Virus record (IMG/VR): IMGVR_UViG_3300045988_138996
Coordinates: 32,001 to 96,000 of that record
Origin: a virus
DNA length: 64,000 bases
Direction: 5' to 3' (one strand)
Below are positions 19,364-63,679 of the stretch, one piece after another; position 1 is the first letter of the stretch; the number at the start of each line of letters is the position of its first letter. The position numbers and the translations under genes are program-made. The notes below the pieces were generated by a model. It was not told the DNA's origin and did no database searches. It worked only from the letters and a program-made list of their open reading frames with translations.

Positions 19364-19368
19364 CCAGT

Positions 19369-19421
19369 ATCCTAACATAGAATTTTTTCTGATTATCTGT
19401 ATTCTGTGTTAGGATTTTTTT
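19369..19421 (+). terminator. Long hairpin terminator inside the tRNA cluster
   Basis: 15 nt arms atcctaacatagaat/attctgtgttaggat followed by a T7 run. Confidence 0.6.
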
Positions 19422-19425
19422 ACTT

Positions 19426-37303: not shown

Positions 37304-39024
37304 AACATTGCCAGCCCCATATGTTCAGTAATGAGCATATGCTAAACAGGAGTTAAACCGGGGAAGAACTTTAAGAGCTCGTTAAACTACAACGTAATTA
37401 GAAATGATAAGCGTGAATGTTGCGAAAGCTGAAAAAATTAACGAGATGATAATATGGTTAAATCCTAAGTTATCGTAAACAAGAGTTTGTTCCGGTAGGA
37501 ATGTCCGTATAGGACAACCTCTAACGACTATCCGATTGCGTCGGAGTACCTTTTATAATAAAGGGAAAAATACCTGGTCCCACTATGTGGGATTAACATA
37601 TAGTCTGTTCACGTTCTGTAATGGAAGTGCTATGAATTAACATAGGTTATTTAAATGATAAACATTATTAAAAAAATGCTGGCGGGCTGATTCTGGTTGG
37701 AGTGTATATTTGACATTTTAAATGTAATATAGTATTATAATAATATAAATATTTTATAATACGAGGTACTTTAAAATGGAAGAAAAACTTCAACGAATAT
37801 TAAATCTTTTATCTGAAGGAAAAAATTCAGAACAAATTTCATTAATTGTTTTTAAGACAAAAAATTGTGTTCAATTTAATCGATTTTGTTCTGAAAATAA
37901 TATTGATTTAAAACAATATAAAGCATTCAAATATATGGATAAAGAATGGCTTTCAGAACAATTAAAAAAATATAATAACAGTCCTACTATTTTGGCTAGA
38001 GAACTTAACTTATCATTAACTTCTGTAAATCGATATGCAATAGAATTTGGATTAAGAAAACCTAAAAAATCTATTGCATCAGTAAATCCTATAAATGAAA
38101 AATATTTTGATGAAGTGGATAATTTTAAAAAAGCCTATTGGCTTGGTTTTATTATGGCTGATGGTTATACTTATAAAACTCCTAATCGTGAAAAATATGA
38201 ATTAGCGATTAAAATTAAGTCTACAGATATTGATCATTTAAAAGAATTTGCTAAGGATGTTGAATTTCCAGAAGAAAAAATTGCTATAGGCTCTGGCAAA
38301 AGAAATGGCAATATTAATTATTATTGCCAATTAAGAACATATAATACACATTTAGTGACAACTGTTATGCATAAGCATAAAATTGTTCAAAATAAAACTT
38401 ATGTGCAATGTTTACCAGACAGTATTCCAAAAGAATATATCTCTGATTTTATTAGAGGATATTGGGATGGTAATGGCACTCTTAAAAAAGCCGGTTGGTC
38501 TGCATGTACAATGTCTTATCAATTAATAGAATCTTTTGTTAAATATTTTGATGAAAATAATATTGAATATACTTTAAGAAAAGAATTATGTAAAAGTGGG
38601 AACTATTTACATCTAATAAGAATAAGAAGTAAATCACATGATACTTTTGTTAAATTAATTTATCCTCCAGAAAAATATGCTTTAAAAAGAAAATATGATT
38701 TAATATATACGAGTCCACAGAATTAATTTCTGTGAATATAACTTAATTGCTGGGAACCCCTTAGAGCTTTTGATACCGAAGTGTAACAATTCAAAAGATT
38801 GGGCAATCAGCAGCGAAATCTTATTTTTTTAAATAAGATACGTTCAACGACTATCCCTTGGCTACCGCGTTAAAAATTAGCAATAGGAGTACGGCCTAAG
38901 TAGGCGGGTGAAATTCCCTTAATTGGAAATGGTTATCTTTAATTTAATTAAAGAAGATATAGTCTGGCCTAGTATGAAAATACTAGAAGGATTTAACGGT
39001 AACGGTTAAATTCATAACAAAGCG
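37304..39024 (+). mobile_element. terL intervening sequence 1: two complete group I cores flanking a LAGLIDADG gene
   Basis: Core A ~37350-37610 (P accgggg, Q ccggt, R taacgactatcc, S atatagtct). Core B ~38745-39024 (P ttgctggg, Q caatcagcagc, R ttcaacgactatcc, S gatatagtct). IGS cca-gcccc matches the ligated ggggU|tgg. Confidence 0.7.
37776..38726 (+). CDS. LAGLIDADG homing endonuclease with N-terminal HTH repeats
   Basis: YWLGFIMADGY and FIRGYWDGNGT motifs. Own promoter-like TTGACA at 37710. Confidence 0.8.
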   Translation: MEEKLQRILNLLSEGKNSEQISLIVFKTKNCVQFNRFCSENNIDLKQYKAFKYMDKEWLSEQLKKYNNSPTILARELNLSLTSVNRYAIEFGLRKPKKSIASVNPINEKYFDEVDNFKKAYWLGFIMADGYTYKTPNREKYELAIKIKSTDIDHLKEFAKDVEFPEEKIAIGSGKRNGNINYYCQLRTYNTHLVTTVMHKHKIVQNKTYVQCLPDSIPKEYISDFIRGYWDGNGTLKKAGWSACTMSYQLIESFVKYFDENNIEYTLRKELCKSGNYLHLIRIRSKSHDTFVKLIYPPEKYALKRKYDLIYTSPQN

Positions 39025-39184
39025 TGGATCTCTCTCGATGAAATGGATTATCTCGGCGAAGGTGACTTCGATACGATTTATGCGTTGTGTATGGAACGTG
39101 ATACGATCGGTATGACATGTTCTTCTACACCGACTGGTCGTAGATCGAAATTTTTCGATATATGTACCAAGAAGGAACTCGGGT
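39025..39184 (+). CDS. terL: terL coding segment 3 (Walker B, motif III)
   Basis: WISLDEMDY...CSSTPTGRRSKFF...KKELG, plus the first base of a Phe codon. Confidence 0.75.
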
Positions 39185-40606
39185 TAAAATAAATAAATTA
39201 GGTTTTTTATAGCAATTCCATCCAATATATGGTAATATATAATTGTAGTTATTTTACATATATTAATAAAAGGAATTGTTACTATGATTAATGAAGATGA
39301 ATTGAGAAGTAAATTAGAAGAAAAATCTGTAGCTCAAATAGCTAAAGATTATAATTGTTCAGAAAATACGATTAGAAGAGCAATGAAGAAGTTTGGATTA
39401 ATAAAAACTTCAAAGAAACCATATCAAAATAAAGAAATATTATTAGATATGTTGCAGACAAAAACAGTTCAAGAAATTGCAGATTATTTTAATGTTGATA
39501 ATCATACTATTTCTAGATGGATCAATAAAAATAATATATCTTTTAATGATAAAAAACTTTATAGAAATAAAGCTTGGCTTGAACAAAAATTAAAAGAATT
39601 TAATGGTTCTTTATCTGCTATATCTAAAGAAACAGGATATAAAAAAGACACAATGCTTGAATGGTGTTATAAGTTTAATTTAAAACACACACCTGATTTT
39701 AATAAAAAATATAATTTAAATATTGATTATTTTAAAAATATTGATTCTGAAATAAAAGCATATTATCTTGGTTTTGGTATGGCTGACTTTGGAATTAGCA
39801 AAGATTGTTATTCTTTTGAATTTAGATTAAAAAAAGATGATAAATATATTATTGAAAAATTAGCAAAAGAATTAAATTATACTGCTGATTTGTATCATTT
39901 TAAAGACAGTATTCGAGAAGGATATTCATTAAGAATTTCTTCAAAAGAAATATGTAAAGATTTAATTTATCATGGAATTGTTCCAAATAAGTCAGGAAAA
40001 GAAGTTTTGCCAAATACTGTTTCAAAAGAATTAATAAAACACTTTATTCGAGGTTTTATTGATGGAGATGGATATATTGGTGGTATAAAAGATAAAACTC
40101 TTGCTATTTGTAGTATGTCTTATAATATATTGTTATCAATTAAATTATTTTTAGAAAAAGAATTAAATATAAAAAAATATAAAATTAAACCAACATTAAA
40201 AGAAAGTGGAAATATTCTATATTATTATAATATATATGGTGATTCTTTTATTAAAGTTCTTGATTATTTATATAAAGATTCAACAATATATTTAATTAGA
40301 AAACATGATAATTATTTAATTCATTTGAATAAAGATATTAATCGTAAAAATAAAAAACTTAACAAGGCTCCATTATTAAGTAATTAATAATTGCAAATCT
40401 TTTGAACTGCTGGAACGTCCGTTAGGAAGATCAGCAGCGAAATCTTTAATTTTTTAAAGAAACGTTCAACGACTATCCTCGTGGTGAGGAGTAGGGTCAA
40501 GCGACTCGAAGCGGAAGATATCCTTTTAATAGGATAAAGATATAGTCTGAGCTATGTAGCAATACATAGAAGGTTGTAAGTAGCGATTACAATCGTAACA
40601 AAACTG
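39185..40606 (+). mobile_element. Group I intron with LAGLIDADG gene (terL intervening sequence 2)
   Basis: Core follows the ORF: P ctgctggaa, Q atcagcagc, R gttcaacgactatcc, S agatatagtct. The junction was chosen to give ELGFQEHY, like T4 gp17 SGFEPY. No P1 pairing found. Confidence 0.7.
39284..40387 (+). CDS. LAGLIDADG homing endonuclease with three HTH repeats
   Basis: YYLGFGMADFG and FIRGFIDGDGY motifs; HTH-like repeats SVAQIAKDYNCSENTIRR and TVQEIADYFNVDNHTISRW. Confidence 0.8.
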   Translation: MINEDELRSKLEEKSVAQIAKDYNCSENTIRRAMKKFGLIKTSKKPYQNKEILLDMLQTKTVQEIADYFNVDNHTISRWINKNNISFNDKKLYRNKAWLEQKLKEFNGSLSAISKETGYKKDTMLEWCYKFNLKHTPDFNKKYNLNIDYFKNIDSEIKAYYLGFGMADFGISKDCYSFEFRLKKDDKYIIEKLAKELNYTADLYHFKDSIREGYSLRISSKEICKDLIYHGIVPNKSGKEVLPNTVSKELIKHFIRGFIDGDGYIGGIKDKTLAICSMSYNILLSIKLFLEKELNIKKYKIKPTLKESGNILYYYNIYGDSFIKVLDYLYKDSTIYLIRKHDNYLIHLNKDINRKNKKLNKAPLLSN

Positions 40607-40928
40607 TCCAAGAGCATTATCACCCGACTCAACATAACCCCATGTGGTCGGATGCGATGGAAGAAGAATTTAGAAATACATACGATAAAAACGCATATGA
40701 TCACGAAGTATTGGCAGAGTTTGGTGTCGAAGAAGCCGGCGTATTCGATAAAGATAAAGTCGAAGAAGCGACACAAATCGACAACTATGCTTATTTCGAT
40801 CGAGATAAATATAAACCTGTTCGTTCTATGATGGATGATAGTAATGTAAAAGAAATACATATACTACCAGAAGGACGAACTACATATTATCCTAATGTAT
40901 TTAGATGTATGGGTGTGGATTGGGATTT
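40607..40928 (+). CDS. terL: terL coding segment 4
   Basis: ...QEHYHPTQHNPMWSDAMEEEFR...CMGVDWD, the start of the nuclease domain. The 3' boundary is approximate. Confidence 0.65.
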
Positions 40929-42228
40929 TAGGATCATTGGAGTTGATCGGAAAGTTTTTTGACAGATCTTTATTTTTGTTGTAATATAATAGTATAATAA
41001 ATTAATATTTTATTTTTAAATAATAGGAATTATTATGCTATATAAAAATGAACAATATTTAAAAGAAGCTGTTAAAACAAAAACCAATAGTCAAATTGCA
41101 AAAGAGAATAATATTAGCGCAGATACAGTAACATATTGGCTGAGAAAATATAATATAAAAAAATATGAAGAAAAAGCTCCTTATATGGACAAAGCATATA
41201 TGGCTGAATTATACAATAAGTATAAAAGTGGAAATAAAATTTCTAAATTATTAAATTGCAATGAAAAAACAATATATGCTTGGTTGGAAAAACACGGAAT
41301 AGATACTTCAGAAACTGGTAGCCAAGGAGCTAGAAAACATTTTTATAATGAAAATTATTTTAAAAAAATAGACACTGAAAGAAAAGCTTATTTTTTAGGT
41401 TTTATACTTGCTGATGGATGTGTTTATTTTGGAACAAATAAAAATTCATATAGATTTCAAATGAATTTACAGGCACAAGATAGATATATATTAGAAGAAC
41501 TTCAAAAAGATATTGAATCTGATTATAAAATTCAAGATAAACAATTTGGATATAGTAAAAATGGTGATCCAATTTTAATTTCTTTATTAAAAATTAATTC
41601 ATCTAAATTATGTGAAGATCTAATGAATCTTGGAGTTGTTCCTAGAAAATCTATGAGACAAGAAATGAAAAAAGATTTAATTCCTGATAAGTTGATTAAA
41701 CATTTTATTCGTGGTTACTTTGATGGAAACGGATCTTGTTCTATAAGAAAAAATTCAATCTCTTTAGATTTTTTAGGTAACAAAACAATATGTTTGCAAA
41801 TTGATGAGTATTTAAAATCAAATAAAATAAATAAAAATGTTCTATATGGGAACAAAAAAAATGAATTATATGGTTTAAGAATAAATAATACAGATAATAA
41901 AATTTTATTATATTATTATTTATATAAAGATGCTACTATTTACTTAAAGCGTAAAAAAGAAAAATTTGACAAATTTCTCCAATGTAAAAAAAGTCCTCTT
42001 ATTAAGTAATTAATAAGTAATAAACTGGTTGAATTGCTGGAATATCCTAAATGGACAATCAGCAGCCAAGTCTCTAGTAGAGAAAGGTTCAACGACTATC
42101 CTTGTATAAGGAGTAGGATCAAGCGATCCGAAGTGGCCAGCAACCTAGTAATAGGTCGAAGATATAGTCTAATCTATATAGTAATATATAGCAGCTTAAA
42201 AGCGTATTAAGTTTAGCGAACTTAATAG
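40929..42228 (+). mobile_element. Group I intron with LAGLIDADG gene (terL intervening sequence 3)
   Basis: P ttgctggaa, Q caatcagcagc, R gttcaacgactatcc, S gatatagtct after the ORF. Boundaries are good to a few nt only. Confidence 0.65.
41035..42009 (+). CDS. LAGLIDADG homing endonuclease with HTH repeats
   Basis: YFLGFILADGC and FIRGYFDGNGS motifs; promoter-like TTGACA upstream. Confidence 0.8.
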   Translation: MLYKNEQYLKEAVKTKTNSQIAKENNISADTVTYWLRKYNIKKYEEKAPYMDKAYMAELYNKYKSGNKISKLLNCNEKTIYAWLEKHGIDTSETGSQGARKHFYNENYFKKIDTERKAYFLGFILADGCVYFGTNKNSYRFQMNLQAQDRYILEELQKDIESDYKIQDKQFGYSKNGDPILISLLKINSSKLCEDLMNLGVVPRKSMRQEMKKDLIPDKLIKHFIRGYFDGNGSCSIRKNSISLDFLGNKTICLQIDEYLKSNKINKNVLYGNKKNELYGLRINNTDNKILLYYYLYKDATIYLKRKKEKFDKFLQCKKSPLIK

Positions 42229-42421
42229 AATATACATGAAATCACAAGCCCCAACATCTATACTTATACTTGAATACGATCAAGTATTTAATAAATTTAG
42301 AGTTATTAATAGAACAGAAATCGAATCGTCTGAATTTACATTCGATAAAGCTGTTAAAAAGATAATTGATTTAAATGCTATTTATAACCCTAGCTATATT
42401 TATATAGACAGAGGATCTGGT
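42229..42421 (+). CDS. terL: terL coding segment 5
   Basis: ...KSQAPTSILILEYD...YIYIDRGSG. The 3' end is set by the P1 hairpin ggU-aa/tt-gcc (42419-42432). Confidence 0.65.
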
Positions 42422-42685
42422 AAATATTTGCCCTATATATTATAAGTGAATTATATAATATATATGCAGTGTGGTATTAAGCGAGAAGCCTAAGTTAATT
42501 AATTAATATGGTAACTCGAACCGAAGACTTAATTAAATTAAGTCAGGGGCAGAGCATAGTAAGTGAAAAGATATAATCTTGCCAAGAGACCGCACCATAC
42601 ATTCACAATACGTATGAAAAAGTATGCCGACCTTATAGGAAACTATAAGAACTAGGAGATAAAAAGCTCCTAGGATAACAACGTG
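42422..42685 (+). mobile_element. ORF-less intervening sequence in terL, probably a divergent group I intron
   Basis: U-G wobble P1 at the 5' splice site and a terminal G at 42685. Splicing gives DRGSG|EYQMESL, matching T4 gp17 NSTG|VSVAKSL. The core differs from the other introns. Confidence 0.55.
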
Positions 42686-43264
42686 GAATATCAGATGGAA
42701 TCTTTAAAGATTTACGGTAAACAACATCCTGAAACCGGACTCGATAAAAAAGTTAAAGGTTGGATGTTCTCCGAAAAAATCGATGTACAAGATCCTGTCA
42801 CTGGTACTTTAGAAAAGAAACATTTAAAACCATTTATGGTGAATCAATTATCGATATTAATTGAACGCGGTAATCTTATATTGAGTCCTTGGGACGCACA
42901 TATATATAAACAATTAATTGATTATCGTGTCGAAAAAATTACGGCGGCAGGTGTTCCTGTTTATAACAGTGATAACGAGCACTTTGTCGATGCTTTGGGT
43001 TTAGCTTATTTAGCGTTCGTTGAACATTTTCCAGAACTTACTAAGTTAGTTAAAAAAGCATCGTATGAAGCCGTCTATTCATTTAATAGTGGTAATTCTC
43101 TACCACTATATGAAAAACGAGATCTTGAAAATCCATGGTCTAATGAAAAGAAACAATATGAATCAGTAGACGAAGCATGGGAAAAAGTTCCGCTTAACGA
43201 TTCGTTTAATAGACGTACGTCTAGAAAACCTTTAGGCGGAATGTTTAAAAGGACATTATTTTAA
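42686..43264 (+). CDS. terL: terL coding segment 6 (nuclease domain C-terminus)
   Basis: ...LIERGNLILS...NEHFVDALGLAYLAF parallels T4 gp17 ...YHDDLVMSLVIFGW. Confidence 0.8.
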   Translation, partial: EYQMESLKIYGKQHPETGLDKKVKGWMFSEKIDVQDPVTGTLEKKHLKPFMVNQLSILIERGNLILSPWDAHIYKQLIDYRVEKITAAGVPVYNSDNEHFVDALGLAYLAFVEHFPELTKLVKKASYEAVYSFNSGNSLPLYEKRDLENPWSNEKKQYESVDEAWEKVPLNDSFNRRTSRKPLGGMFKRTLF

Positions 43265-49905: not shown

Positions 49906-51126
49906 ATGAAAATCGAAATGAAAGAATTTGTTAATTCTCTTAAAGAACAACGTGCTGAAGTGACTAAAGCCGGTCAAGAAGCTGGTTGGTCCCCTGAAAA
50001 AATGCAAGAATCTTTGAGAAAATATGATATTCTCGAAGACGTTGTTGCTCGTATGAACAAACAACCTAGCAATAAATCTTTCAGCATTAAAGAAACAATT
50101 ATGACAACTGATGTTGTCGATTTGGTTCCTCGTATCATCGAAACTCGTATGATCGAAGCTGAAGACACTCAATCTGTTATCTCTCCATTCTTCACAAAAA
50201 TTCAATCCGACAAAACTAGTGGTACCGTTGTAGTACCTATTATCGGTGAATTGCAAGCACACGAAGTTTCCGAAGCTGGTGCTTACAACGATGAAGCAGT
50301 AGAAATCAACACTCTTCAATACAACTCCATCGAAATTCGTCCTAAGAAAATCGGTCTTAAAGTTACGTTATCTGAAGAAGTTATCATGGATTCCTACTGG
50401 GATATCATGGAAGCTAACTTGTCCCGTATCGGCGGTGCAATGGCTCGTTACAAAGACGAATGGTGTGCTCGTGAGTTCTCTGAACATGGTCACGTAGTAT
50501 TTGATAACTCTTTAGGTGCTCAAAATCCTGACGCTATGACAAGTGGTCTTGGTGAAGATTCTCTTCCTAACGGTACTCTTTCCGTTGAAGACTTCATGTC
50601 TATGTGCTTGGCATTGATGGCAAATGATAAGACACCAACAGACGTTATCATGCATCCACTTTGCTGGTTAGTATTCGCTCGTAACGCAATGGTAGGTCAA
50701 GGCTTAACTTTCGGTGCTATGGGTGCTATGAATGTTAATCCATTCGGCACAACTCAAGGTACTCCTGGTTTCGCTGGCTTGTCTAACAACATGGGTCCTC
50801 AAAAATTCATCTTGAATGAATCTCAAGCAATGTTTAACTTGCCTATGCCAGTTAACATTATCTTGAGCCCTCGTGTTAAATTTGATAAACAAAACAAAAC
50901 ATTTGATATGTACGCTATCGATCGCAACAACATTGGTGCTATCGTACAACGTGAAGATTTGTCTATTGAAAAATGGACTAACCCAGAAACTGATGTACGT
51001 ATCATCAAAGCAAAAGAACGCTATGGCGTTGGTATCATGGATAATGGTAAAGGTATCGCAGTGGCTAAAAACATTTCCGCTATGCCTTCCTTCCCTCGTC
51101 CAACTGCAATTCGTATTCAAGAATAA
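49906..51126 (+). CDS. Major capsid protein (HK97 fold)
   Basis: 406 aa. VVPIIGELQAHEVSEAGAY...IRPKKIGLKVTLSEEVIMDS matches the Phage_capsid pattern. Highly expressed codon usage and a strong terminator after it. Confidence 0.7.
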   Translation: MKIEMKEFVNSLKEQRAEVTKAGQEAGWSPEKMQESLRKYDILEDVVARMNKQPSNKSFSIKETIMTTDVVDLVPRIIETRMIEAEDTQSVISPFFTKIQSDKTSGTVVVPIIGELQAHEVSEAGAYNDEAVEINTLQYNSIEIRPKKIGLKVTLSEEVIMDSYWDIMEANLSRIGGAMARYKDEWCAREFSEHGHVVFDNSLGAQNPDAMTSGLGEDSLPNGTLSVEDFMSMCLALMANDKTPTDVIMHPLCWLVFARNAMVGQGLTFGAMGAMNVNPFGTTQGTPGFAGLSNNMGPQKFILNESQAMFNLPMPVNIILSPRVKFDKQNKTFDMYAIDRNNIGAIVQREDLSIEKWTNPETDVRIIKAKERYGVGIMDNGKGIAVAKNISAMPSFPRPTAIRIQE

Positions 51127-55837: not shown

Positions 55838-58800
55838 ATGGCGTACTCTTTCAAAGAGGAAATCCTCCGCGATCTTCCTGGTGTGTTTGTCGAAGTCAAT
55901 TCTGTAAAGAAAAAACTTTATGACGACAGCCAATTCGGTACAACTGACGCAGTGCTTTGTATCGGTACTGCATTCGATGGTCCTAACGGTGTTCCTGTGC
56001 CTATTTATGATCCATCTTATGCAACATATACTTATGGCGATACTTATAATCGCGAAACTAAACGTGAAGTAGACTTAACAGCTACATTGGCTGATGCATA
56101 TAATTCCGGTTGCCGTACTTTGTATGGTTTCCGTATCGGTGGTTCTGAAGCTCAAAAAGATTTTAAATTGCGTTCTGACGATACTCTTCGTTTCCGTGTA
56201 AAATCTCGCTTCCCATCTAACAAAGCTAAACAAGTATACTTTACTTTCGATAATACTCCAGGTCAAGAAGTTCTTACTATCTATAAACCTGTATCTAAAG
56301 CGACAACTTACGAACGTTACAATGCTATGATTGATAACGAAGAAGAAATGATTAAAGTTGAAATTCCTTTGGGCCTTATGGGTGCTGGCTTTACTGCCGA
56401 TACTCCTATCTCCGAAGTAATTCGTCATATCAATAACTTTCCTCGTAACAATGTTGTTACTTTGTCTATCGTAAATAAAAAAGGTCAAGATGTTACACTT
56501 CGTAAAGATTCTTACGAATTAGCTCTTGGTTCTATTTTCCCTGGTACATACTTCTTAGGTCGTAAACGCTCCTTAGTACCTTGCCGTACAGAAGTTCGTA
56601 CTCATGTAATCAAATCTAAAAAATCTCCAAAACCTTTCGGTTCCTTTACTGGTAAATATTTCCATACTCTTCGTATTAATACAGACGTTAATGCTGAATA
56701 TCCTATTTACTCTGTAAGTGATAAAGATTTGAACGAAGCCTTCACTACTGTAGGCTTGAAAATGTATACTCATAATGATTATCTTCGTACTCCTGGTGCA
56801 TCTGCATTAGCATTCGAAGAAGATGATAACGATTATGAAGATACTAATATGACTAACTTCCAAAAATACATGAAGTTAGGTTCTGGCTTTGCTATTACAG
56901 CAACAGCTTATCCTCGTACAAATTCTACTGGTCAATATTTGACTCCTCGTGTAAAAGAATCTGACGTTAAAGATAAACAATACGTAGTATCTATTGGTGA
57001 AGGTGCATACTCTGTATTGCAAAACGCTGATATGCCTTATCGTGTATTGGGCGCTCAAATTTGTGCCGATACTGTAATTGGCGGTCGCCTTCCTAAACCA
57101 AAAGATTTCTTAAAAGCATTCCCTATCGATGCTGTTATGGTTAATACTGTAGCAGGTGGTGCTCCTGTAGTCGATACCGAAATGTTTAAAATAACTCCTG
57201 TAGTTAATGTTAAAGATACTAAACATTCTCCACGTTCTTATAAATTTAGCTTTGCTAAAGTAGATAATGCTGCAGAAATTACTGACGAAAACATTTATCA
57301 AAACGAAGTATTTACAGTTATCCCTTCTGTAGCTAATGAAGCTGCTTTGGATTTAGATCATAAAACTTATGAAGCTGGTCAAACATTCTACTTTGAAGAC
57401 ACTAAAGAAGTGAAATCTATTACGTTCGATGGTAAGCTTCAAAATGCTGTTTCTCCACATCAAAAATTCAAACACTTCGTTACGAAAGATAAAATTATCG
57501 AAGCAGAACCAGCAACTGGTAATACTGTAACATTTAAAGAAATCGCATCTCTTGCTGATCTTCAATATGATACAGCTATGAATGGTTTGTTGACAGATGC
57601 TGATGCAACGACTGCTGCATACTATGCAACGACTGCTGCTGCTGCTACTGCAACTGCTGCTAATGCTAAATACGTATTACTTTCTGTTAATGACGTATTA
57701 TGTGTTGGCAAATATGATGCTGGCGCTGTAACTCCTATCGGTGAATATGACATCTTAACAGATAAAGATTCTCGTGACGATAAAGTCGTTACTTATATTG
57801 AAAACTTCGATTGCGTAGACAACCGTGTTATCATTTCCGTAACAGACTTCAACTATCGTACTGTAGCAGAATTTATTTCTGACTTAAAAGATAACGTTAA
57901 CTTCACTGATAACTTTACTGTGGAATTGACTGATAATGGTATCGTTGAAAAAGATGCTCTTATCGAAGAAGTGTTAGAACCTGTATTGGTTGGCGGCAAA
58001 GTTGCGTTAGCTACTTTGGCTAAAGACCGTACTATCGATTACGATTATACTATGCGTATTCCTTATCGTACTCCTGATAACTTCGCTCGTCAATTGGCAC
58101 AACATTGCTTGTATACAGAATTAAAAACTGCTCATACTCATGGTTTGATCGGTGTTGAACGTATCTCTGACTACACATTGTCTGGCGTCGAACAAAAATT
58201 CCAAGATTTGAATAGTTTAAATCTTAACCTAGAATTGAAACGTGGTAACGGTCGTTCTGTAATCGATGACGACGGTGCTCCTGTCGATATCGGCCGTTCT
58301 ATTTCTTGTACATTCTTCCAAAACAATGTACCAGTTTATAATTCTACTTACGCATATGTAGGTAACGGTGCTGCAGCTTATGCTGGTATGGTTTCCGCAT
58401 TGCCTGTAGAACAATCTCCTACGAACCAAAAAATCGGCATTTCTCCATTGTTTGAATTAACAGCTTCTCAATTATCTAACTTAACTTCTAAAGGTATTGT
58501 TACAGTTAAGAATACATTTACTCGTGGTTATGTAATTACAGATGGCTGTACAATGGCAGATCCAACTGATGCATTGTCTCGTCTTAATAGTGTTCGTATC
58601 ATCGACGCTGTTGAACGTGCTATTCGCCGTGTTTGTGAACCATTTATCGGTAAACAAAATACAATCTCCGTTCGTAACTCTATCCAAACAGGTTTGACAT
58701 CTGAGTTGAATAAACTTAAAGGTGTATTGTTATATGACTACTTATTCGAAATTGCTAATGACGTAACTGCTCTTCAATATACTTATATTGATATCAATTA

Positions 58801-58870
58801 CACTATTATGCCATTTAACGAAATTCGTCAAATCAATAACTACATTCAAATTCGTCAACCTGGTACCTAG
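55838..58870 (+). CDS. Tail sheath protein (1010 aa)
   Basis: N-terminal LPGVFVEVNS...AVLCIGTAFDGPNG and C-terminal KGIVTVKNTFTRGYVITDG are typical of sheath proteins. Followed by the tube gene. Highly expressed codon usage. Confidence 0.75.
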   Translation: MAYSFKEEILRDLPGVFVEVNSVKKKLYDDSQFGTTDAVLCIGTAFDGPNGVPVPIYDPSYATYTYGDTYNRETKREVDLTATLADAYNSGCRTLYGFRIGGSEAQKDFKLRSDDTLRFRVKSRFPSNKAKQVYFTFDNTPGQEVLTIYKPVSKATTYERYNAMIDNEEEMIKVEIPLGLMGAGFTADTPISEVIRHINNFPRNNVVTLSIVNKKGQDVTLRKDSYELALGSIFPGTYFLGRKRSLVPCRTEVRTHVIKSKKSPKPFGSFTGKYFHTLRINTDVNAEYPIYSVSDKDLNEAFTTVGLKMYTHNDYLRTPGASALAFEEDDNDYEDTNMTNFQKYMKLGSGFAITATAYPRTNSTGQYLTPRVKESDVKDKQYVVSIGEGAYSVLQNADMPYRVLGAQICADTVIGGRLPKPKDFLKAFPIDAVMVNTVAGGAPVVDTEMFKITPVVNVKDTKHSPRSYKFSFAKVDNAAEITDENIYQNEVFTVIPSVANEAALDLDHKTYEAGQTFYFEDTKEVKSITFDGKLQNAVSPHQKFKHFVTKDKIIEAEPATGNTVTFKEIASLADLQYDTAMNGLLTDADATTAAYYATTAAAATATAANAKYVLLSVNDVLCVGKYDAGAVTPIGEYDILTDKDSRDDKVVTYIENFDCVDNRVIISVTDFNYRTVAEFISDLKDNVNFTDNFTVELTDNGIVEKDALIEEVLEPVLVGGKVALATLAKDRTIDYDYTMRIPYRTPDNFARQLAQHCLYTELKTAHTHGLIGVERISDYTLSGVEQKFQDLNSLNLNLELKRGNGRSVIDDDGAPVDIGRSISCTFFQNNVPVYNSTYAYVGNGAAAYAGMVSALPVEQSPTNQKIGISPLFELTASQLSNLTSKGIVTVKNTFTRGYVITDGCTMADPTDALSRLNSVRIIDAVERAIRRVCEPFIGKQNTISVRNSIQTGLTSELNKLKGVLLYDYLFEIANDVTALQYTYIDINYTIMPFNEIRQINNYIQIRQPGT

Positions 58871-58925: not shown

Positions 58926-59126
58926 ATGGCTTACTCTAATAACTCTGGTGTAACTACAGCGTCTGAATACACTCGTAGTTATACTACTTTTTCCGGCTGT
59001 GATATCGTAGCTACATTCGGTTCCGAAGTAGTAGCTGAAATTCAAGGTATTACAGTTTCTATTAATCGTGAAAAGGCTCCAGTGTACACCTTCGGGAGTG
59101 CAGAGCCTCGTTCTATCTCGAGAGGT
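58926..59126 (+). CDS. Tail tube protein, exon 1
   Basis: YTRSYTTFSGCDIVATFG...REKAPVYTFGS aligns with the uninterrupted paralog at 62429. P1: gagaggU pairs with gcttctc (59142-59148). Confidence 0.8.
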
Positions 59127-60063
59127 AAAAATTCCGCGTTTGCTTCTCCTTTGCAGTAATGCAATGTATAATTAAACTCTGTGATATGCTGGAAACCCCT
59201 TAGAGCCTTTAGTACCAAAGTGTGACAATCTAAAGGATTGGGCAATCAGCAGGCAGCGTAAGCGCCTCAACGACTATCCGTAAGGAGTACATCATAACAG
59301 CTGATGGAAGTGCAGAGCTCCCTTTTTCGTGTCATATGTGGCATTGCAAATAATTTTTCTATGTAATATAATAATAGAAAAGGAGATGATCACATATGAA
59401 GTATAAATATAATTTAGATTTTTTTAAAAATGATTCACCTGAAAAATATTATTTCTATGGTTTTTTAGCGTCAGATGGTTATATTTCAGATGATAAAATT
59501 AGCATTGGAATAAATGTTAAAGATAGAGAAATATTAGAAAAATTTCAAAAATTAATTTGTCCAGAAAAACCAATTTATGAAAAGACACAAACAAATTCTT
59601 TAAAATTTGAAATAACAAATAAGGATTTGTCAAAAAAATTAAAAAAATATTTTTCTATGATAACCAATAAAAAATATGAAGAAATCAGGTTTCCAAATGT
59701 TCCAGAAAAATATCTTAAAGATTTTATCCGTGGTGTAATTGATGGAGATGGAAATATCGATACAACAAAAGGATATCAAAAAGACAAAATTTATATTGGA
59801 GCAAGATTAAGAATATTAGGAAATAAGGAATTCTTAATAGAATTAAATGAAAAAACTAAATTATTATATCCACATAATACCAATGCAGTAAATAAAAAAG
59901 GAAAAGAAAATGTTTATGTGATAACATATAATTTTAAAACTGCTAGAGAATTATTAAGAATAATATATTATGATGGATGTTTATCGTTAACAAGAAAATT
60001 TAATCGATCTAGGGATGAAGATATAGTCTCAACAATTACGAAAGTTATTGATAAGAAAAAATG
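59127..60063 (+). mobile_element. Group I intron with LAGLIDADG gene in the tail tube gene
   Basis: P atgctggaaa, Q caatcagcagg, R ctcaacgactatcc. S gaagatatagtct lies inside the 3' end of the endonuclease ORF. Terminal G at 60063. Confidence 0.8.
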
Positions 60064-60064
60064 A
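59396..60064 (+). CDS. LAGLIDADG homing endonuclease
   Basis: YYFYGFLASDGY and FIRGVIDGDGN motifs. The TGA stop spans the 3' splice site. Confidence 0.8.
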   Translation: MKYKYNLDFFKNDSPEKYYFYGFLASDGYISDDKISIGINVKDREILEKFQKLICPEKPIYEKTQTNSLKFEITNKDLSKKLKKYFSMITNKKYEEIRFPNVPEKYLKDFIRGVIDGDGNIDTTKGYQKDKIYIGARLRILGNKEFLIELNEKTKLLYPHNTNAVNKKGKENVYVITYNFKTARELLRIIYYDGCLSLTRKFNRSRDEDIVSTITKVIDKKK

Positions 60065-60177
60065 AACGCGGTATTGCTGGTACTATTGTATTCACATTGT
60101 TCGACCGTGATGCCCTTGTAGATGCTCTTGCTGTTCGTGCAGCTAAAGCAGCTTATTTCCAACGTATCGGCGGTGAT
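60064..60177 (+). CDS. Tail tube protein, exon 2 (38 codons)
   Basis: KRGIAGTIVFTLFDRD... aligns with paralog RTIAGSMVFAVLDKH. The 3' end is approximate (set after TGAT). Confidence 0.7.
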
Positions 60178-60531
60178 TTGGCGGTAGCCTAGTCGGCATA
60201 TAAAGTAATTTGTATGTCTGCAAATATATGATAGTTTGTATTTGCACCGATTGGATCGAATTGCTGGGAAATCCTAAAGCTTAAAATACCTTAATGGTTG
60301 TGAAAACAGAAATAAATTTTAAGATGATATATGGTTAAAACCTAAGTATTATAATAATGGACAATCAGCAGCGAAGTCGCAATATTGCGAAACGTTCAAC
60401 GACTATCTCGTGAAGAGAGTAGGATAAAATGCTTTCCGAAGTGGTCCATCCCATACAGTGGGAAATGATATAGTCTATGCTTATATGAAAGTATAAGAAA
60501 AACAAATTTAGCAAATTTGTGTATAAAATAT

Positions 60532-60560
60532 TTGACAATAATTAATATCACCATTATAAT
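60532..60560 (+). promoter_or_regulatory. Consensus promoter for tnpB inside the intron
   Basis: TTGACA (60532-60537), 17 nt spacer, TATAAT (60555-60560). Confidence 0.6.
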
Positions 60561-60589
60561 ATTCTTATAAACAAGAAAGGATATTATAT

Positions 60590-61678
60590 ATGGAAAAAAG
60601 ATTTTTATTACAAATATATCCAACAAAAGAACAAGAAAAATTAATACAAAGAACATTTGGATGCGCAAGATTCGTTTATAATTATTTTTTAGATTATAGA
60701 ATAAAAAAATATAATGAAGAAAATATTTCTTTAACTGCTAATGATTGTAGTAAAATATTAACTTCATTAAAAAAAGAAAAAGAATTTTTGCAAATTCCAG
60801 ATAAATATGCATTACAAAATGTATTAAAAGATTTAGATATGGCTTATAAAAGATTTCAAAAAGGAATTGCGAATTACCCAAAGTTTAAATCTAGAAGTAA
60901 TTATAAGACATATAGAACAAATCGATCTGGTAATAAAATTAGATTTGTTTCTGATAATATAATTATTCTTCCTAAGTTAAGAGAAGTTAAGTTTAGGAAC
61001 AATATTGTTCCAGATGGCGAAATTGTGAATGTTGCAATTATACAAAAACCTTCTGGTAAATATTATGCGTCTGTTCTTTGTAGAAATTGCAAAGTAAAAA
61101 ATATTGAAAAAACTGGCAAAAGTGTTGGTATAGATTTAGGAATAAAAGATTATATTGTTACATCTGATGGACAAAAAATTCCAAATAATCATTTTCTAAA
61201 AAAGACAATATCTAAAATAAAGAAAATGCAAAAAGAATTTGATAGAAAAAAAGATGGTAGCAATAATAAAGAAAAATTAAGAATTAAAATAGCTAAACAA
61301 TATGAAAAACTAACAAATGCAAGAAAAGATTATATTCATAAACTTTCTATGAAATTAATAGAAGAATATGATGATATTTGCATTGAAGATTTAAAGATAA
61401 AAGATATGGTTAAAAATAAACTTTTGTCTTTTGATATAATGGATTGTTCATGGTATGAATTACGAAGACAGCTTGAATATAAAGCAAAATTCTATAATAA
61501 AAGAATTCATATTGTTGATAGATATTTTCCATCGAGTAAAAAATGTTCAGTTTGTGGTTATAAAAAAGAAGATCTTTCGCTTGATGATCGATTTTGGACT
61601 TGTCCAGATTGTAATACCACTCATGATAGAGATATAAATGCAGCTAAAAATATTCTTAAAGAAGGAATGAAAAATTAA
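60590..61678 (+). CDS. tnpB: TnpB (IS200/IS605-family RNA-guided nuclease), apparently intact
   Basis: RuvC-I VGIDLG, RuvC-II ICIEDL, Zn finger CSVCG...CPDCN, RuvC-III HDRDINAAKNI. No tnpA nearby. Confidence 0.85.
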   Translation: MEKRFLLQIYPTKEQEKLIQRTFGCARFVYNYFLDYRIKKYNEENISLTANDCSKILTSLKKEKEFLQIPDKYALQNVLKDLDMAYKRFQKGIANYPKFKSRSNYKTYRTNRSGNKIRFVSDNIIILPKLREVKFRNNIVPDGEIVNVAIIQKPSGKYYASVLCRNCKVKNIEKTGKSVGIDLGIKDYIVTSDGQKIPNNHFLKKTISKIKKMQKEFDRKKDGSNNKEKLRIKIAKQYEKLTNARKDYIHKLSMKLIEEYDDICIEDLKIKDMVKNKLLSFDIMDCSWYELRRQLEYKAKFYNKRIHIVDRYFPSSKKCSVCGYKKEDLSLDDRFWTCPDCNTTHDRDINAAKNILKEGMKN

Positions 61679-61759
61679 TTATTGTTGAACCGCAGGAATT
61701 GCGGAGATTGTCTTGAGACGTTTATCGTCAATAGAAATTTTATTTTATAAAAAATTCAG

Positions 61760-62131
61760 ATTAACTATCAACCGTACACAATTACTGAATGGGACACAAA
61801 ATTAACTAACATGGTTGTTAATTCCTTGGGCGCTAACAACAGCAATAGCCAAGTAGCTTCCACTAACCCATTCAAAGTTACACAAAATGTAGCTATTCAA
61901 TCTACTCCAAAATATTCTGACGAAATTCCTCCATTCGACATTACATTGTCCTTTGCGAACGAATATGGTCAATCTGCAGTTATGGTTATCTATGGCTGTG
62001 AAATTTTGAACGAAGCTTCTAGCTTCTCTGTAGATTCTACTACTACTGATAAAGCTTGTACTTACATTGCTCGCTCTGTCGATTACTTGCAACCAGTAGA
62101 AAACAAATACTTGCTTGATAACAAGTACTAA
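61760..62131 (+). CDS. Tail tube protein, exon 3
   Basis: INYQPY...DEIPPFDITLSFANEYGQSAVMVIYGCEILNE aligns with paralog GNYQNK...ELPNFDVTLSFANEYGRQSTISVYNCTIIDE. Confidence 0.7.
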   Translation: MNYQPYTITEWDTKLTNMVVNSLGANNSNSQVASTNPFKVTQNVAIQSTPKYSDEIPPFDITLSFANEYGQSAVMVIYGCEILNEASSFSVDSTTTDKACTYIARSVDYLQPVENKYLLDNKY

Positions 62132-62138: not shown

Positions 62139-62166
62139 GGCGAGGAAATTTTTTCCTCGCCTTTTA
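62139..62166 (+). terminator. Intrinsic terminator after the tube gene
   Basis: ggcgaggaaa-tt-tttcctcgcc followed by tttt. Confidence 0.75.
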
Positions 62167-62190: not shown

Positions 62191-62439
62191 GTGAAAAAAT
62201 CTCAAGAAAATACTAATCAAATATTTCTGTATCTAAATCGTGGTTTACAAGATTACATTAATAGTTCTTTATTATCTGGTGAACATTCTAGTAATGTTAA
62301 GAAAGATATGGAAGAAATATGCTATAATATTATTAGTGAGCGTAATATTGAACTTAAAACGAACATTATTACGTTGATCAATAATAGAGTTCAACAATAT
62401 ATGAAATTATATAATTTAAAGGTGAAATATGCCAAATGA
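62191..62439 (+). CDS. Hypothetical protein
   Basis: GTG start following a GGAG RBS. Confidence 0.45.
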   Translation: MKKSQENTNQIFLYLNRGLQDYINSSLLSGEHSSNVKKDMEEICYNIISERNIELKTNIITLINNRVQQYMKLYNLKVKYAK

Positions 62440-63679
62440 TTTGTCTTTAGGTAATAAAGACGTGGTTCAAACCTCAAAGTATACGAGAACGTATACTTCT
62501 TATAGCGGGTGTGATATTGTAGCTTCTATTAATATTACGATTCCAGGTCAAGAAACAATTTCGAAAGTATTTGGGAGCCTACAAACATTCTCCTATAGTA
62601 TACATCAAGAAAAAGCTCCGGTAAGGACATTGGGCGATGTTAATGCTATCACGTATGTCGATGGCCCAAGAACAATTGCCGGCTCTATGGTATTTGCCGT
62701 ATTAGATAAACATGTTATCTATGAGATTATAGACGATGTATATAAAAAAGGCAATTATCAAAATAAACATTTTTTAATGGATGAATTACCTAACTTTGAC
62801 GTTACATTATCGTTCGCTAATGAATATGGACGTCAGTCTACTATTAGTGTGTATAATTGTACGATAATCGATGAAGGTCAGATTATGTCGATTAACGATA
62901 TCTTAACAGAAAATACATATCATTATTATGCGACCGATATCGATTATATGACAGAGTCTCAGAACTATTATACTCTTAATGAAAAAAGTATAATTGATTC
63001 TAATCCATGGTTAACAACTAATAATGCTAAGATTAAAACGCAAAATATTAAAGTACAATATGGCATCCCTGTATTAACATTATCTAAAGAAGGATATTAT
63101 TCTTTTAAGACATATATGGATGCTCTTAATAGAAAATATAAAAAGTTAGCCGATCAGTTTATGGGCGAAAAAGAATCTGAAAAGATGGCTCAGCTTAAAA
63201 AAGATTATTATAATCTTAGAACTGAAGCCGAACAATATTATCCTTCTCAAGCATTATTATCTAAGACACAAAAGAAAGTTCGTTTCTTAGAACGTAAACG
63301 TTTAAAAGTTAATAAAGAATACGATAATTTTAGAACATCATTATACACATCAAGACGTGACGTTCCTGATTATTCTAAGTTTAGAGTTAATGGTAAAGTT
63401 AAAAACGAATCTGAAATTCCGGACTATTCTAAATATAGATTAGATCCTAAAAAAGATAATTCTAACCTTCCTTCATATGATGACTTTAGAAAGAAAGAAA
63501 ATGATCGTCATGAGAAAAAAGATGATATTCCTGATTACTCTAACTTTAGAAAAAATCGTAATAAAACTGTTAAGGAAGAAGAAGCAACTCATTATAAATT
63601 AGATGAAAATGGTAACGTGGTTATTATAGATACACATATAGACAATAAAGGAGGCGACGATAATATTGAACACATCTAG
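62429..63679 (+). CDS. Tail tube paralog with a C-terminal extension carrying PDYS(K/N)(F/Y)R repeats
   Basis: The N-terminal ~190 aa are colinear with the spliced tube protein. The C-terminus carries four [ILV]P-[DS]-Y-[SD]-x-[FY]-R copies. Confidence 0.7.
   Translation: MPNDLSLGNKDVVQTSKYTRTYTSYSGCDIVASINITIPGQETISKVFGSLQTFSYSIHQEKAPVRTLGDVNAITYVDGPRTIAGSMVFAVLDKHVIYEIIDDVYKKGNYQNKHFLMDELPNFDVTLSFANEYGRQSTISVYNCTIIDEGQIMSINDILTENTYHYYATDIDYMTESQNYYTLNEKSIIDSNPWLTTNNAKIKTQNIKVQYGIPVLTLSKEGYYSFKTYMDALNRKYKKLADQFMGEKESEKMAQLKKDYYNLRTEAEQYYPSQALLSKTQKKVRFLERKRLKVNKEYDNFRTSLYTSRRDVPDYSKFRVNGKVKNESEIPDYSKYRLDPKKDNSNLPSYDDFRKKENDRHEKKDDIPDYSNFRKNRNKTVKEEEATHYKLDENGNVVIIDTHIDNKGGDDNIEHI

Follow-up and report, generated by a model that had tools for sequence, protein, structure and literature searches.

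The window, a 64,000-nucleotide stretch of viral DNA analysed here as a whole, carries a tail-tube-like structural gene that is interrupted by a 1582 bp insert at 60178-61759. The gene is divided into exon 1 (58926-59127, from the ORF list and splice reconstruction), exon 2 (60065-60177, ending ...GGC GGT GAT, with the final GTGAT at the position of a transposon-adjacent motif, or TAM) and exon 3 (61760-62131), which when joined in the splice reconstruction give an in-frame CDS of 687 nt encoding 228 aa. A sheath gene recognised by its PHROG (1010 aa, 55838-58870) lies directly upstream of exon 1. Downstream, an intrinsic-terminator-like hairpin detected by pattern scan closes the tube gene (62139-62161) and is followed by an uninterrupted 416 aa paralog of the tube-like protein (62429-63679). 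The exons, the insert and its parts, the neighbouring intron described below, the terminator-like hairpin and the paralog are all on the plus strand.

A first-pass annotation of this DNA had proposed that the tube reading frame stops after ...YFQRIGGD and restarts at INYQPY. The frame does stop after T60177 and restart at A61760, and empty sites in relatives agree with these positions. Orthologues on related phage contigs read continuously across the junction (...FQRIGGDINYQPYTITEWD...), and at six loci where the site is empty (L001-L006) the DNA is ...GGCGGYGAT/ATTAAYTAYCA..., the slash marking the junction. Since the flanking bases are unlike the insert ends, the insert spans exactly 60178-61759, without positional ambiguity. 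The paralog, to which the annotation had aligned both parts of the gene, shares the PHROG of the spliced protein and aligns with it (BLASTP E 4e-20), but only loosely around the junction, and it is the orthologues rather than the paralog that are the real evidence for the predicted junction.

In Bacillus jumbo phages of the 0305phi8-36-like group, homologues of the interrupted gene carry the annotation of tail tube or major structural protein. The protein has no sequence match in the PDB, and its AlphaFold model, with a mean pLDDT of 51.5, was too poor for a fold search; its putative identity as a tube protein comes from gene order and homologue annotations. Since the capsid has a separate gene at 49906-51126, the PHROG label "major head protein" is probably a misassignment. 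The exons have an omega of 0.04-0.08 over a dS of 0.36-0.76, values that point to strong purifying selection on the host gene. The tube gene is therefore unlikely to be a pseudogene, an alternative raised at first pass that these values contradict.

The same gene contains a second group I intron (59128-60064), which was absent from the first-pass annotation. The 5' part of this intron matches RF00028 (32.1 bits, E 1e-6), and it carries an endonuclease ORF (59396-60064) assigned to Pfam LAGLIDADG_3 and to phrog_4645. The related locus L101 lacks this intron and has a contiguous ...SRGKRGIAG... in its place.

The 5' part of the insert is a group I ribozyme. The complete core recognised in the earlier annotation (P 60261-60270, Q 60362-60372, R 60394-60407 and S 60467-60476) is matched by RF00028 over the full model (positions 1-253) at 60192-60497, with 56.3 bits (gathering score 50) and an E of 8e-14 when the region of 411 nt is searched alone. 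This match comprises P2-P9 and ends at G60497, just past the P9 hairpin (60480-60497). The ribozyme was missed when Rfam was run on the whole window or on a stretch of 3.5 kb, probably because of the speed filters. Between the window and L007 the ribozyme (60178-60497) keeps 96.6% identity, at a synonymous divergence of 0.35 in tnpB. Both the ribozyme and the promoter described below are conserved above synonymous sites.

Sequence reading and comparison of 5' ends predict a P1 of 9 bp at 60174-60195, in which U60177, the base before the 5' splice site, would pair with G60192 to form a U.G pair with base pairs on either side. All relatives keep the internal guide sequence (C)UAGUC(G) in the form (A/C)UAGUC, and it would pair with the ...GAU of the flank. 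At the other end, G61759 is the final intron base; removal of the insert restores the host frame and gives the junction of the relatives' empty allele. The predicted splice sites, with an exon-final U paired with a guide G and a terminal G, are those of a group I intron. The insert is probably self-splicing, for which the low exon omega and the 96.6% conservation of the ribozyme give indirect support. Beyond P9, a P9.1-like hairpin at 60502-60520 (ACAAATTT-AGC-AAATTTGT) occurs in L101 as GTAAATTT-AGC-AAATTTAC, a double compensatory change. Its 3' side overlaps the 5' partner (60517-60530) of a predicted long-range pairing with 61741-61754, found as inverted repeat I12 and with a counterpart, I9, in L007. 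The minimum-free-energy fold predicted for a mini-construct without the ORF includes this pairing, which would place the 3' splice site beside the core.

A further inverted-repeat stem encloses tnpB, a published feature of IStrons (PMC4227781). Its 5' arm (60532-60546) contains the -35 box of the promoter and its 3' arm (61674-61688) overlaps the tnpB stop codon; 12 nt are perfectly complementary (I13), and the stem reaches 15 bp with G.U pairs. In controls made of mononucleotide shuffles and native ORF windows, the duplex energy was equalled by 1 of 200 shuffles. The equivalent stem of L005 has 30 nt at 90%, and the stems of L101 and L102 are not significant in the shuffle control. The promoter itself is a sigma-70-type TTGACA-17-TATAAT between the ribozyme and tnpB (60532-60560), which is perfect (12/12), as had been stated at first pass; it is the only perfect match in the region. 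Its hexamers are identical in L007 and L101, have one mismatch in L102 and L005, and are absent in the compared elements of L103, L104 and L107, so that the promoter is kept in the jumbo-phage clade only.

The tnpB gene (60590-61678) encodes an ISDra2-like RNA-guided nuclease of 362 aa, identified by all three Pfam domains, by PHROG and by alignment to PDB structures. It had been described as intact, and all its RuvC residues and its zinc finger do align with ISDra2 TnpB (PDB 8bf8/8exa; E 1e-77): D191, E278 and D361 correspond to D182, E266 and D348 here, and both CxxC pairs of the zinc finger are conserved (C319, C322, C338 and C341). With a dN/dS of 0.094 against L007 and 0.23 against L101, tnpB is intact and, as judged from these ratios, under purifying selection; its product is a predicted nuclease. 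The earlier remark that no tnpA is nearby holds for the whole 64-kb window, the element included, out of a phage genome of roughly 220 kb, and the relative loci fetched for this phage group likewise contain no detected TnpA. Among 185,579 bacterial and archaeal species genomes there is no close TnpB, the best match being 40%.

The last 88 nt of the insert, up to the 3' splice site (61672-61759), form an omegaRNA-like tail. It consists of stem A (61690-61694/61700-61704), which is the ccgca-ggaat-tgcgg hairpin pointed out at first pass (61690-61704), of a helix (61705-61713/61733-61740) enclosing a hairpin (61717-61720/61726-61729), of an A/U tract that stands at the position of the relatives' terminal stem-loop, and of an ...AATTCAG end at 61753-61759. 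Comparison with omegaRNA models, as the earlier annotation had proposed, gave a divided answer. R2, a covariance model derived from the tails of six other IStrons, matches the tail over its full length, with 36.2 bits and an E of 3.7e-7, and stops on the splice-site G61759, while a model built from non-IStron TnpB loci of a metagenome scan (R1) matches only its 5' part, the first half, with 25.8 bits. In L007 and L101, both stem A and the hairpin have changed in a compensatory way, and the final 34 nt are invariant across the window, L007 and L008. A pattern scan flagged stem A as terminator-like; its conservation among TnpB relatives, with covariation, leads us to count it as scaffold.

Compared with those of relatives, the tail is shorter by about 25-50 nt, and its terminal region has a predicted folding energy of -0.6 kcal/mol, against -11.5 in L005. 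The putative omega scaffold, in the place where one was expected at first pass, is a shortened one without a stable guide-proximal stem-loop, which makes guide-RNA function less certain than had been implied. The stem-loop nearest the guide is reported to be essential for cleavage in an IS607-type model element, and in characterised IStrons the choice between splicing and cleavage depends on how stable the 3'-most omegaRNA stem is (PMC13521648). Relatives have hairpins of the CTCGTGAC-TTTA-GTCATGAG type at both ends. Here the left end has only GGC-GGTA-GCC and the right end no stable hairpin (-0.6 kcal/mol), and the element seems to have lost its transposon ends.

The terminal TCAG is shared by 7 of 8 related elements, the exception being L101 with CCAG. 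On the 5' side, the TGAT flank noted at first pass is part of GTGAT, which also precedes the elements of L007 and L005; the flank is GAGAT in L101, ATGAT in L107 and TTGAT in L102, L103, L104 and L089. We considered that empty alleles might avoid being cut through synonymous GGT-to-GGC/GGG changes in the TAM, and dropped this idea given the GAGAT of the occupied L101 allele. The first 16-20 nt of exon 3 (ATTAACTATCAACCGTACAC) are the predicted guide and target, following the way in which TnpB elements work (PMC10690162).

L007, L008 and L101 carry the same element at the identical position, a site that is empty in L001-L006. The same ribozyme family is found upstream of TnpB in L005 (85.7 bits) and, with a ribozyme HMM, in six further loci: L101, L102, L103, L104, L107 and L089, the last of which was missed by a gathering-threshold scan of phage loci and found later by nhmmer. 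The element of L102 lies 27 nt downstream, after ATTGAT; in L005 it follows TGTGAT and sits nested within the neighbouring intron, and in L103 it is in thyA, after TTGAT. This presence of the ribozyme-TnpB unit at other sites in related phages argues that it is mobile and moves as a whole. The occupied L101 and the empty L001-L004 differ by about 2% in the sheath gene, and the presence of the element is thus polymorphic among near-identical phages. Between -144 and +24 of the site, however, L101 shows 10-18 differences per 100 nt from L001-L004, over a background of 0-5. This peak resembles a gene-conversion tract, but it adjoins the site of the other intron (APV/YTF) and could equally stem from the endonuclease of the latter. 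The synonymous divergence of tnpB equals that of the tube exons (dS of 0.35 vs 0.36 and of 0.60 vs 0.60), which indicates a long vertical residence of the IStron in the host gene and not frequent recent transfer.

The first-pass annotation had read the insert as an IStron, and each structural element of that reading has been verified: the 5' ribozyme, the TnpB, an omegaRNA-like 3' end stopping at the splice site, and the flanking TGAT. Three further hallmarks of IS605-type IStrons can be added: the TCAG terminus, the U.G pair inside a paired P1, and the inverted-repeat stem around the ORF. These match the definition of group A (PMC4227781), and the T-rich ...GAT target may do so as well. Like group A IStrons such as CdISt1 of Clostridioides difficile (Braun et al., 2000; Tourasse et al., 2014, PMC4227781), the window element has a 5' group I ribozyme and a 3' IS605 ORF B (TnpB); in both, element ends are splice sites, the 5' exon ends in ...GAT with the U.G in a paired P1, the terminus is TCAG, an inverted-repeat stem surrounds the ORF, and TnpA-less variants are common. 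The relatives L089, L103 and L104 show every one of these features, including TTGAT and both end palindromes. In contrast, the window clade lacks both a TnpA remnant and a left-end palindrome, and an A/U tract replaces the right-end hairpin. The window element also differs from group A IStrons in its GTGAT flank, in its own consensus promoter between ribozyme and tnpB, and in its location in a jumbo-phage structural gene rather than in a bacterial chromosome. Its inverted-repeat stem of 15 bp, almost all A-U/G-U, has the length and composition described for group B.

In group B IStrons (CboIStron and CseIStron-1; PMC10690162, PMC13521648) the scaffold ends at the 3' splice site, as the putative scaffold of the window element does, so that splicing parts scaffold from guide, and the stability of the last stem-loop sets the balance between splicing and cleavage, as it would here. 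Group B elements, however, have a serine recombinase, a TGGG target, a CGG end and splicing after G, whereas the window element belongs to the ISDra2/IS605 type. The phage location and the lack of a nearby tnpA had both been presented as unusual. The phage structural-gene site and the missing tnpA stand, but neither phage IStrons nor TnpA-less IStrons are new: the C. botulinum phages c-st and D-1873 harbour the group B elements CbISt3 and CbISt4, copies with ORF B only are counted as members of the family (PMC4227781), and TnpA-less IStrons are common in C. difficile (PMC10690162). The described group B phage examples are toxin-converting prophage-plasmids and not structural genes of jumbo myoviruses.

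ISDra2 TnpB (PDB 8bf8, 8exa, 8h1j) aligns over its full length with the window TnpB, with identical catalytic and zinc-binding residues, and the two elements share a TTGAT-like target motif and a scaffold, putative in the window, that covers the right end of the element together with the end of the gene. Unlike the window element, ISDra2 has no ribozyme and possesses TnpA and a hairpin at each end; the terminus of its non-IStron relatives is ...TCAA instead of ...TCAG, and the window scaffold is shorter. With phage group I introns that carry protein homing endonucleases (T4 td/I-TevI, the Twort introns and the LAGLIDADG intron at 59128-60064) the element shares a putative IA2-type ribozyme in an essential phage gene. 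These introns likewise loop an endonuclease gene with its own promoter out of the fold, have a patchy distribution among close relatives and show conversion-like tracts in flanking exons. Unlike protein homing endonucleases, the endonuclease of the window element would be RNA-guided, with its specificity written in the adjoining exon, so that every new insertion would re-target it automatically.

We consider it likely that the insert is a reduced IStron residing in a tail-tube-like gene of a 0305phi8-36-like jumbo phage, removed by splicing and carrying a TnpB that supports homing without TnpA. The ribozyme would fold on the late tube-gene transcript, the inverted-repeat stem and the second long-range pairing would bring G61759 to the core, and 1582 nt would be removed to yield ...GGD/INY.... 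The promoter, lying 3' of the ribozyme and within the 5' arm of the stem, would produce a second transcript with tnpB, the tail and the start of exon 3; this transcript would be unable to splice, and the scaffold would therefore stay joined to the guide. TnpB and its guide RNA would then cut intron-less alleles in co-infecting relatives, at TGAT followed by ATTAACTATCAACC... (predicted target TGAT-ATTAACTATCAACCGT), and recombinational repair would copy the element in. Homing of TnpA-less IStrons has already been proposed (PMC13565253), and the spread of the window element, if any, is probably homing-intron-like. The all-A/U terminal stem would favour splicing of the full-length transcript, as one would expect where the structural protein is essential and abundant.

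More tentatively, a jumbo-phage IStron lineage may have shed TnpA and both transposon ends to become a true RNA-guided homing intron with a two-transcript solution. TnpB and its scaffold would have replaced a protein homing endonuclease, a host-type promoter would provide the unspliceable transcript, possibly early in infection, and the weakened last stem would allow efficient splicing of the late full-length transcript. The conflict between splicing and guide production of bacterial IStrons would in this way be resolved by two transcripts.

The loss of both transposon-end palindromes and the reduction of the guide-proximal stem-loop to an A/U tract (-0.6 kcal/mol) would also be expected of a resident, immobile intron that still splices, whose guide-RNA function has decayed and whose TnpB is kept for another reason, such as control of splicing by binding the 3' end, or guide-independent or differently guided competition between phages. 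TnpB binding does repress splicing in a characterised IStron (PMC10690162), model R1 covers only the 5' half of the tail, and the equal dS of TnpB and host gene is expected under vertical descent. We nevertheless think this explanation unlikely, as the tail lines up with functional-type scaffolds along its whole length and stops precisely where the exon begins, and as presence and absence vary among phages 2% diverged. Domesticated TnpBs are often catalysis-dead; the RuvC triad and zinc finger are intact here after a dS of about 0.6.

A classical IStron moved by a TnpA acting in trans, from the host or from elsewhere in the phage, with TnpB only restoring excised copies, would account for the IS200/IS605-type left and right hairpins and TTGAT targets of the canonical relatives L089, L103, L104 and L005, and for the new sites in the same gene (L102, L005), which require access to non-homologous targets; the 64 kb covered would also leave much of the roughly 220-kb genome to harbour a transposase. 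Yet the window clade has neither a left-end hairpin nor a stable right-end hairpin for a Y1 transposase to bind, TnpA is missing from the window and from the fetched relative loci of the phage group, and the best TnpB match in the 185,579 bacterial and archaeal species genomes is that of 40%, which together make this scenario quite improbable. We give hardly any credence to the parts not forming a unit at all. The Rfam model is complete by G60497, ahead of the tnpB part, as it would be had an IS605-like tnpB cassette landed by chance in the P9 region of an ordinary intron, but this ribozyme lineage is joined to the TnpB clade in at least 7 independent loci, in different genes and with ends at exon junctions. 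The insert might otherwise never be removed, leaving a pseudogene backed up by the paralog 300 bp downstream, a proposal at odds with the exon omega given above, and the conservation of ribozyme and promoter beyond synonymous sites speaks against either version.

IStrons have so far been studied in clostridial chromosomes and plasmids, where splicing and guide-RNA production compete on one transcript. The reduced IStron of the window offers a natural test case of the same machinery under selection in an essential, highly expressed phage gene, and the apparent outcome is the loss of the transposase and of its binding sites, a nuclease gene kept under purifying selection, an eroded splicing-blocking stem and a separate promoter past the ribozyme. 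Should the TnpB prove active, the element would provide a natural example of an RNA-guided nuclease serving as the homing endonuclease of a phage intron, a role that has been proposed and for which we found no documented case in the literature searched. Empty and occupied alleles are both present in public metagenomes, and an experimental test is therefore possible.

A megablast of the region against 50,697 phage records returned nothing, and a metagenome scan with the TnpB alignment recovered 80 loci of at most 49% identity, none of which had ribozyme motifs upstream of TnpB. The TnpBs of Geobacillus phage E3, Brochothrix phage A9, Enterococcus phage iF6 and Bacillus phage SPG24 are free-standing, with no room for an upstream ribozyme. 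Among the other TnpB lineages that could be placed on contigs (45-78% identity to the window TnpB), 6 of 7 have the same ribozyme, so the family is broader than the window, and its carriers include a deposited, unannotated Clostridioides phage genome.

A tail sheath gene (1010 aa, 55838-58870, PHROG tail sheath) is directly followed by a tube-like gene in three pieces (58926-59127, 60065-60177 and 61760-62131), which join into an in-frame CDS of 687 nt (228 aa). More than 3,000 homologues of this gene are present in public data, and the full-length ones are uninterrupted, reading ...FQRIGG(D/E)(I/L)N.QP..I.EWD... across the junction. In six related phage contigs the empty site is contiguous in the DNA, with ...GGCGGYGAT running directly into ATTAAYTAYCA... 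The reading-frame interruption claimed by the first-pass annotation can thus be placed exactly and, because neither terminal base of the insert matches the one it displaces, the insert is exactly 60178-61759 (1582 bp). That annotation also listed the alternative that the tube gene is a pseudogene; the exons evolve with an omega of 0.04-0.08 over a dS of 0.36-0.76, which rules this reading out. The "tail tube" identity is putative and is based on gene order and homologue annotations. Both tube-like paralogs (58926-62131 and 62429-63679) match PHROG 9206, labeled "major head protein", sit after the sheath gene and are accompanied by a separate capsid-type gene (phrog_3922) at 49906-51126; the "major head protein" label in PHROG and RefSeq is probably a mis-annotation.

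The insert holds the complete group I core that had been read from the sequence: elements P, Q, R and S are all present, and RF00028 matches over its full length at 60192-60497 (56.3 bits), a match reported only when a short stretch, not a larger one, is searched. In a predicted P1 of 9 bp, U60177 pairs with G60192 and CUAGUCG serves as internal guide; (A/C)UAGUC is kept at the guide position in all relatives. The claimed TTGACA-17-TATAAT promoter is indeed a 12/12 match to the sigma-70 consensus (60532-60560) and the sole perfect one in the region. The 362-aa ORF carries three TnpB Pfam domains and can be aligned from end to end with ISDra2 TnpB (PDB 8bf8/8exa/8h1j, E 1e-77). Counted along the alignment, D182, E266 and D348 are the counterparts of ISDra2 D191, E278 and D361, and the four zinc-finger cysteines are present, in agreement with an intact TnpB. 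Its dN/dS is 0.094 against locus L007 (dS 0.35) and 0.23 against locus L101 (dS 0.60); selection has maintained tnpB over a long period.

An inverted repeat, perfect over 12 nt and 15 bp long including G.U pairs, joins 60532-60546 to 61674-61688 and brackets tnpB exactly; of 200 shuffles, 1 equalled its duplex energy. Complementarity also exists between 60517-30 and 61741-54, and this pairing appears in predicted folds.

A ribozyme HMM finds the same family immediately 5' of TnpB in many loci. The elements of L007 and L008 (TnpB identity 92-94%) and L101 (78%; no other intron in the gene) occupy the same site as the window element, and that of L102 (52%) lies 27 nt downstream, between ...ATTGAT and GAGTGG... 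Others are found in a thymidylate synthase gene, near its 3' end (L103, 52%), inside an ORF of no assigned function (L104/L105, 54%), 5' of a DnaB-like helicase gene (L107/L108, 53%), in Clostridioides phage ES-S-0173-01 (L089, 49%) and nested in a homologue of the neighboring LAGLIDADG intron (L005, 45%). These relatives show that ribozyme and TnpB travel as a mobile unit. No TnpB more than 49% identical was found among 50,697 phage records, and none above 40% in 185,579 species represented by one genome each. The TnpB cluster has a size of 97 and the empty tube allele clusters 181 and 53, so that both alleles are abundant in public data.

The L089 element (CP067352.1, about 63.2-65.1 kb) is a canonical group A IStron inside an ORF, unannotated in the deposited genome, with TTGAT, left-end hairpin, ribozyme, TnpB, full omegaRNA tail and ...GGTTCAG; its ribozyme is not reported by Rfam at the gathering threshold. 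The L005 element (3331-5083 of ENA ERZ28634149 scaffold_43; ribozyme 85.7 bits) begins after TGTGAT, ends in GTCAG and is followed by ATGCTGG, just 5' of the P3/P4 region of the intron homologue. The arrangement is a twintron, whose outer ribozyme could fold only once splicing has removed the inner element. The L005-type tail motif GGGGATAGCCTNNTGTCAAG occurs at least five times per contig in several viral contigs of 75-154 kb (IMGVR_UViG_3300025117_000031, 3300025087_000053 and 3300025073_000041; loci L109-L124), which points to phage genomes where such elements are numerous.

Group A IStrons combine an IA2 intron with IS200/IS605 ORFs, insert after TTGAT, ATTAT or TTTAT, terminate in TCAG, have a P1 with a U.G pair flanked by base pairs on both sides, and carry an inverted-repeat stem around the ORFs and a subterminal palindrome at each end (Tourasse et al., 2014; PMC4227781). 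The window element shares the TCAG terminus (...TTCAG), the stem and the predicted P1 U.G pair. The TGAT noted at its 5' flank is part of GTGAT, near the consensus but not a listed target motif. The element departs from the definition in the end palindromes, both of which are lost throughout its clade, and in having gained a promoter. L089, L103 and L104 are of textbook form: they follow TTGAT, terminate in ...GGTTCAG and have at the left end a hairpin CTCGTGAC-TTTA-GTCATGAG whose mirror image lies at the right end. L107 comes near this form (flank ATGAT, degenerate left-end hairpin), L005 retains both hairpins, and in L102 the left hairpin is lost and the right one is rich in A/U. The window, L007 and L101 share a perfect internal promoter; L102 and L005 each deviate from it by one mismatch, and the canonical relatives in other genes lack it. 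The equivalent stem is 30 nt long (90%) in L005 and significant in L103, L104, L107 and L089; the shuffle test gave no significance in L101 or L102. Non-IStron relatives of the same TnpB family terminate in ...TCAA, so that the final G, which a group I intron needs, distinguishes the IStron forms. Ribozyme, TnpB, a tail ending at the splice-site G, TCAG and the enclosing stem uphold the IStron interpretation: the window element descends from, and by inference works like, IS605-type IStrons, and somewhat more distant relatives are full members. No TnpA is detectable in the 64-kb window (genome about 220-230 kb), in line with the first-pass annotation, which saw no tnpA nearby. Phage-borne IStrons, TnpA-less IStrons and the concept of TnpB-driven homing are already known.

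The proposed omegaRNA-like 3' end includes the hairpin CCGCA-GGAAT-TGCGG, present at 61690-61704. A covariance model from 16 non-IStron TnpB loci (R1) aligns end-to-end with the L005 tail, stopping at the splice-site G (43.8 bits), but its match to the window tail is confined to the first half (25.8 bits, E 1.4e-3). A second model (R2), built from six IStron tails excluding the window clade and specifying three helices, matches 61672-61759 at full length and stops at G61759 (36.2 bits, E 3.7e-7), aligning stem A, the enclosing helix, a truncated A/U terminal stem-loop and AAUUCAG opposite AGGUUCAG. A C-G pair of stem A becomes U-A in L007 and L101, and the internal hairpin reads GACG/CGUC in the window, GACAC/GUGUC in L007 and GAUAU/AUAUC in L101. 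Despite a dS of 0.35, the window, L007 and L008 share the same final 34 nt. The terminal region folds with -0.6 kcal/mol, versus -11.5 in L005 and -12.9 in a non-IStron relative. Since splicing is lost, but cleavage kept, when the base of the last stem has G-C pairs (Mortman and Sternberg, 2026; PMC13521648), an all-A/U tract is expected where efficient splicing is at a premium. The best weak Rfam match of 61684-61773, which includes stem A and GAUUG, is to Ref70 "Enterococcus sRNA 70" and, at 22 bits, falls far short of the threshold; this family may itself represent an omegaRNA or right end from an IS605-type element.

According to published work on IStrons, splicing separates the scaffold from its guide and is itself repressed by TnpB or by the scaffold (PMC10690162). 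In the late tube transcript, the inverted-repeat stem and the 60517-30/61741-54 pairing would close tnpB off as a loop and place G61759 beside the ribozyme core. The promoter, within the 5' stem arm, would give a transcript with a predicted start at about 60567, which cannot splice because it is devoid of the ribozyme and both 5' pairing partners, and which would carry tnpB, the scaffold and, as guide, the first bases of exon 3. TnpB would target the intron-less allele, where TGAT is directly followed by ATTAACTATCAACC...; in the occupied allele the two lie 1582 bp apart. TnpA-less IStrons could spread through intron homing, including between co-infecting phages (PMC13565253), and a confirmed two-transcript, TnpA-independent homing model would raise the interest of the window element.

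In both comparisons tnpB and the host gene have equal synonymous divergence; descent of the element has therefore been mostly vertical. The sheath gene of the IStron carrier L101 is nonetheless only about 2% diverged from those of L001-L004, four loci that lack the IStron and have a different intron at APV|YTF instead. Between -144 and +24 relative to the IStron site, L101 and these four reach 10-18 differences per 100 nt, versus a background of 0-5. This tract is the stretch between the two intron sites. It has the pattern that double-strand-break repair leaves, and could stem from either of the two intron elements.

The tube-like gene contains a second, independent group I intron (59128-60064) with a LAGLIDADG endonuclease ORF (59396-60064), preceded by TTGCAA-17-TATAAT. 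It is absent from L101, and L001-L005 have a different intron between the APV and YTF codons, so that across relatives this gene has at least four sites occupied by introns. The terminase large subunit gene (35783-42700) is also heavily colonized, by an intein, whose Intein_splicing domain falls in ORF 35783-37345, three Rfam group I introns (38692-38986, 40350-40569 and 41976-42191), a fourth ribozyme-like nhmmer match (37374-37609) and interspersed LAGLIDADG/HTH endonuclease ORFs. Five tRNA genes cluster at 18957-19500.

A solo omegaRNA-scaffold-like element, with no TnpB or ribozyme nearby, lies at 13978-14096 (R2 32.5 bits, E 1e-7; 74% identical to the L005 IStron tail; end ...GATGCCAG). 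That it was inserted is shown by seven contigs of related phages, which lack it and read ...ATCTATCAACAACTGATCACAA...; in the window this right-end-only copy is flanked by a 10-nt direct repeat (CAACAACTGA). Within the ORF-free stretch 12272-14257, the region 12273-12900 has a consensus promoter (TTGACG-17-TATAAT, 12273-12301) and, after it, a GC-enriched non-coding stretch, which gave no match in an Rfam search and may be a large structured RNA of a new kind. Over more than 170 nt its identity to ten other jumbo-phage contigs is close to 100%, far above coding genes, and it has a hairpin insertion with compensatory changes in three contigs. There is a weak resemblance to an omegaRNA scaffold in its first 80 nt (R2 19.9 bits), and 10 nt past this resemblance stands TAACTATCAAC, which recurs exactly at just one other place in the window, the IStron target (61762-61772).
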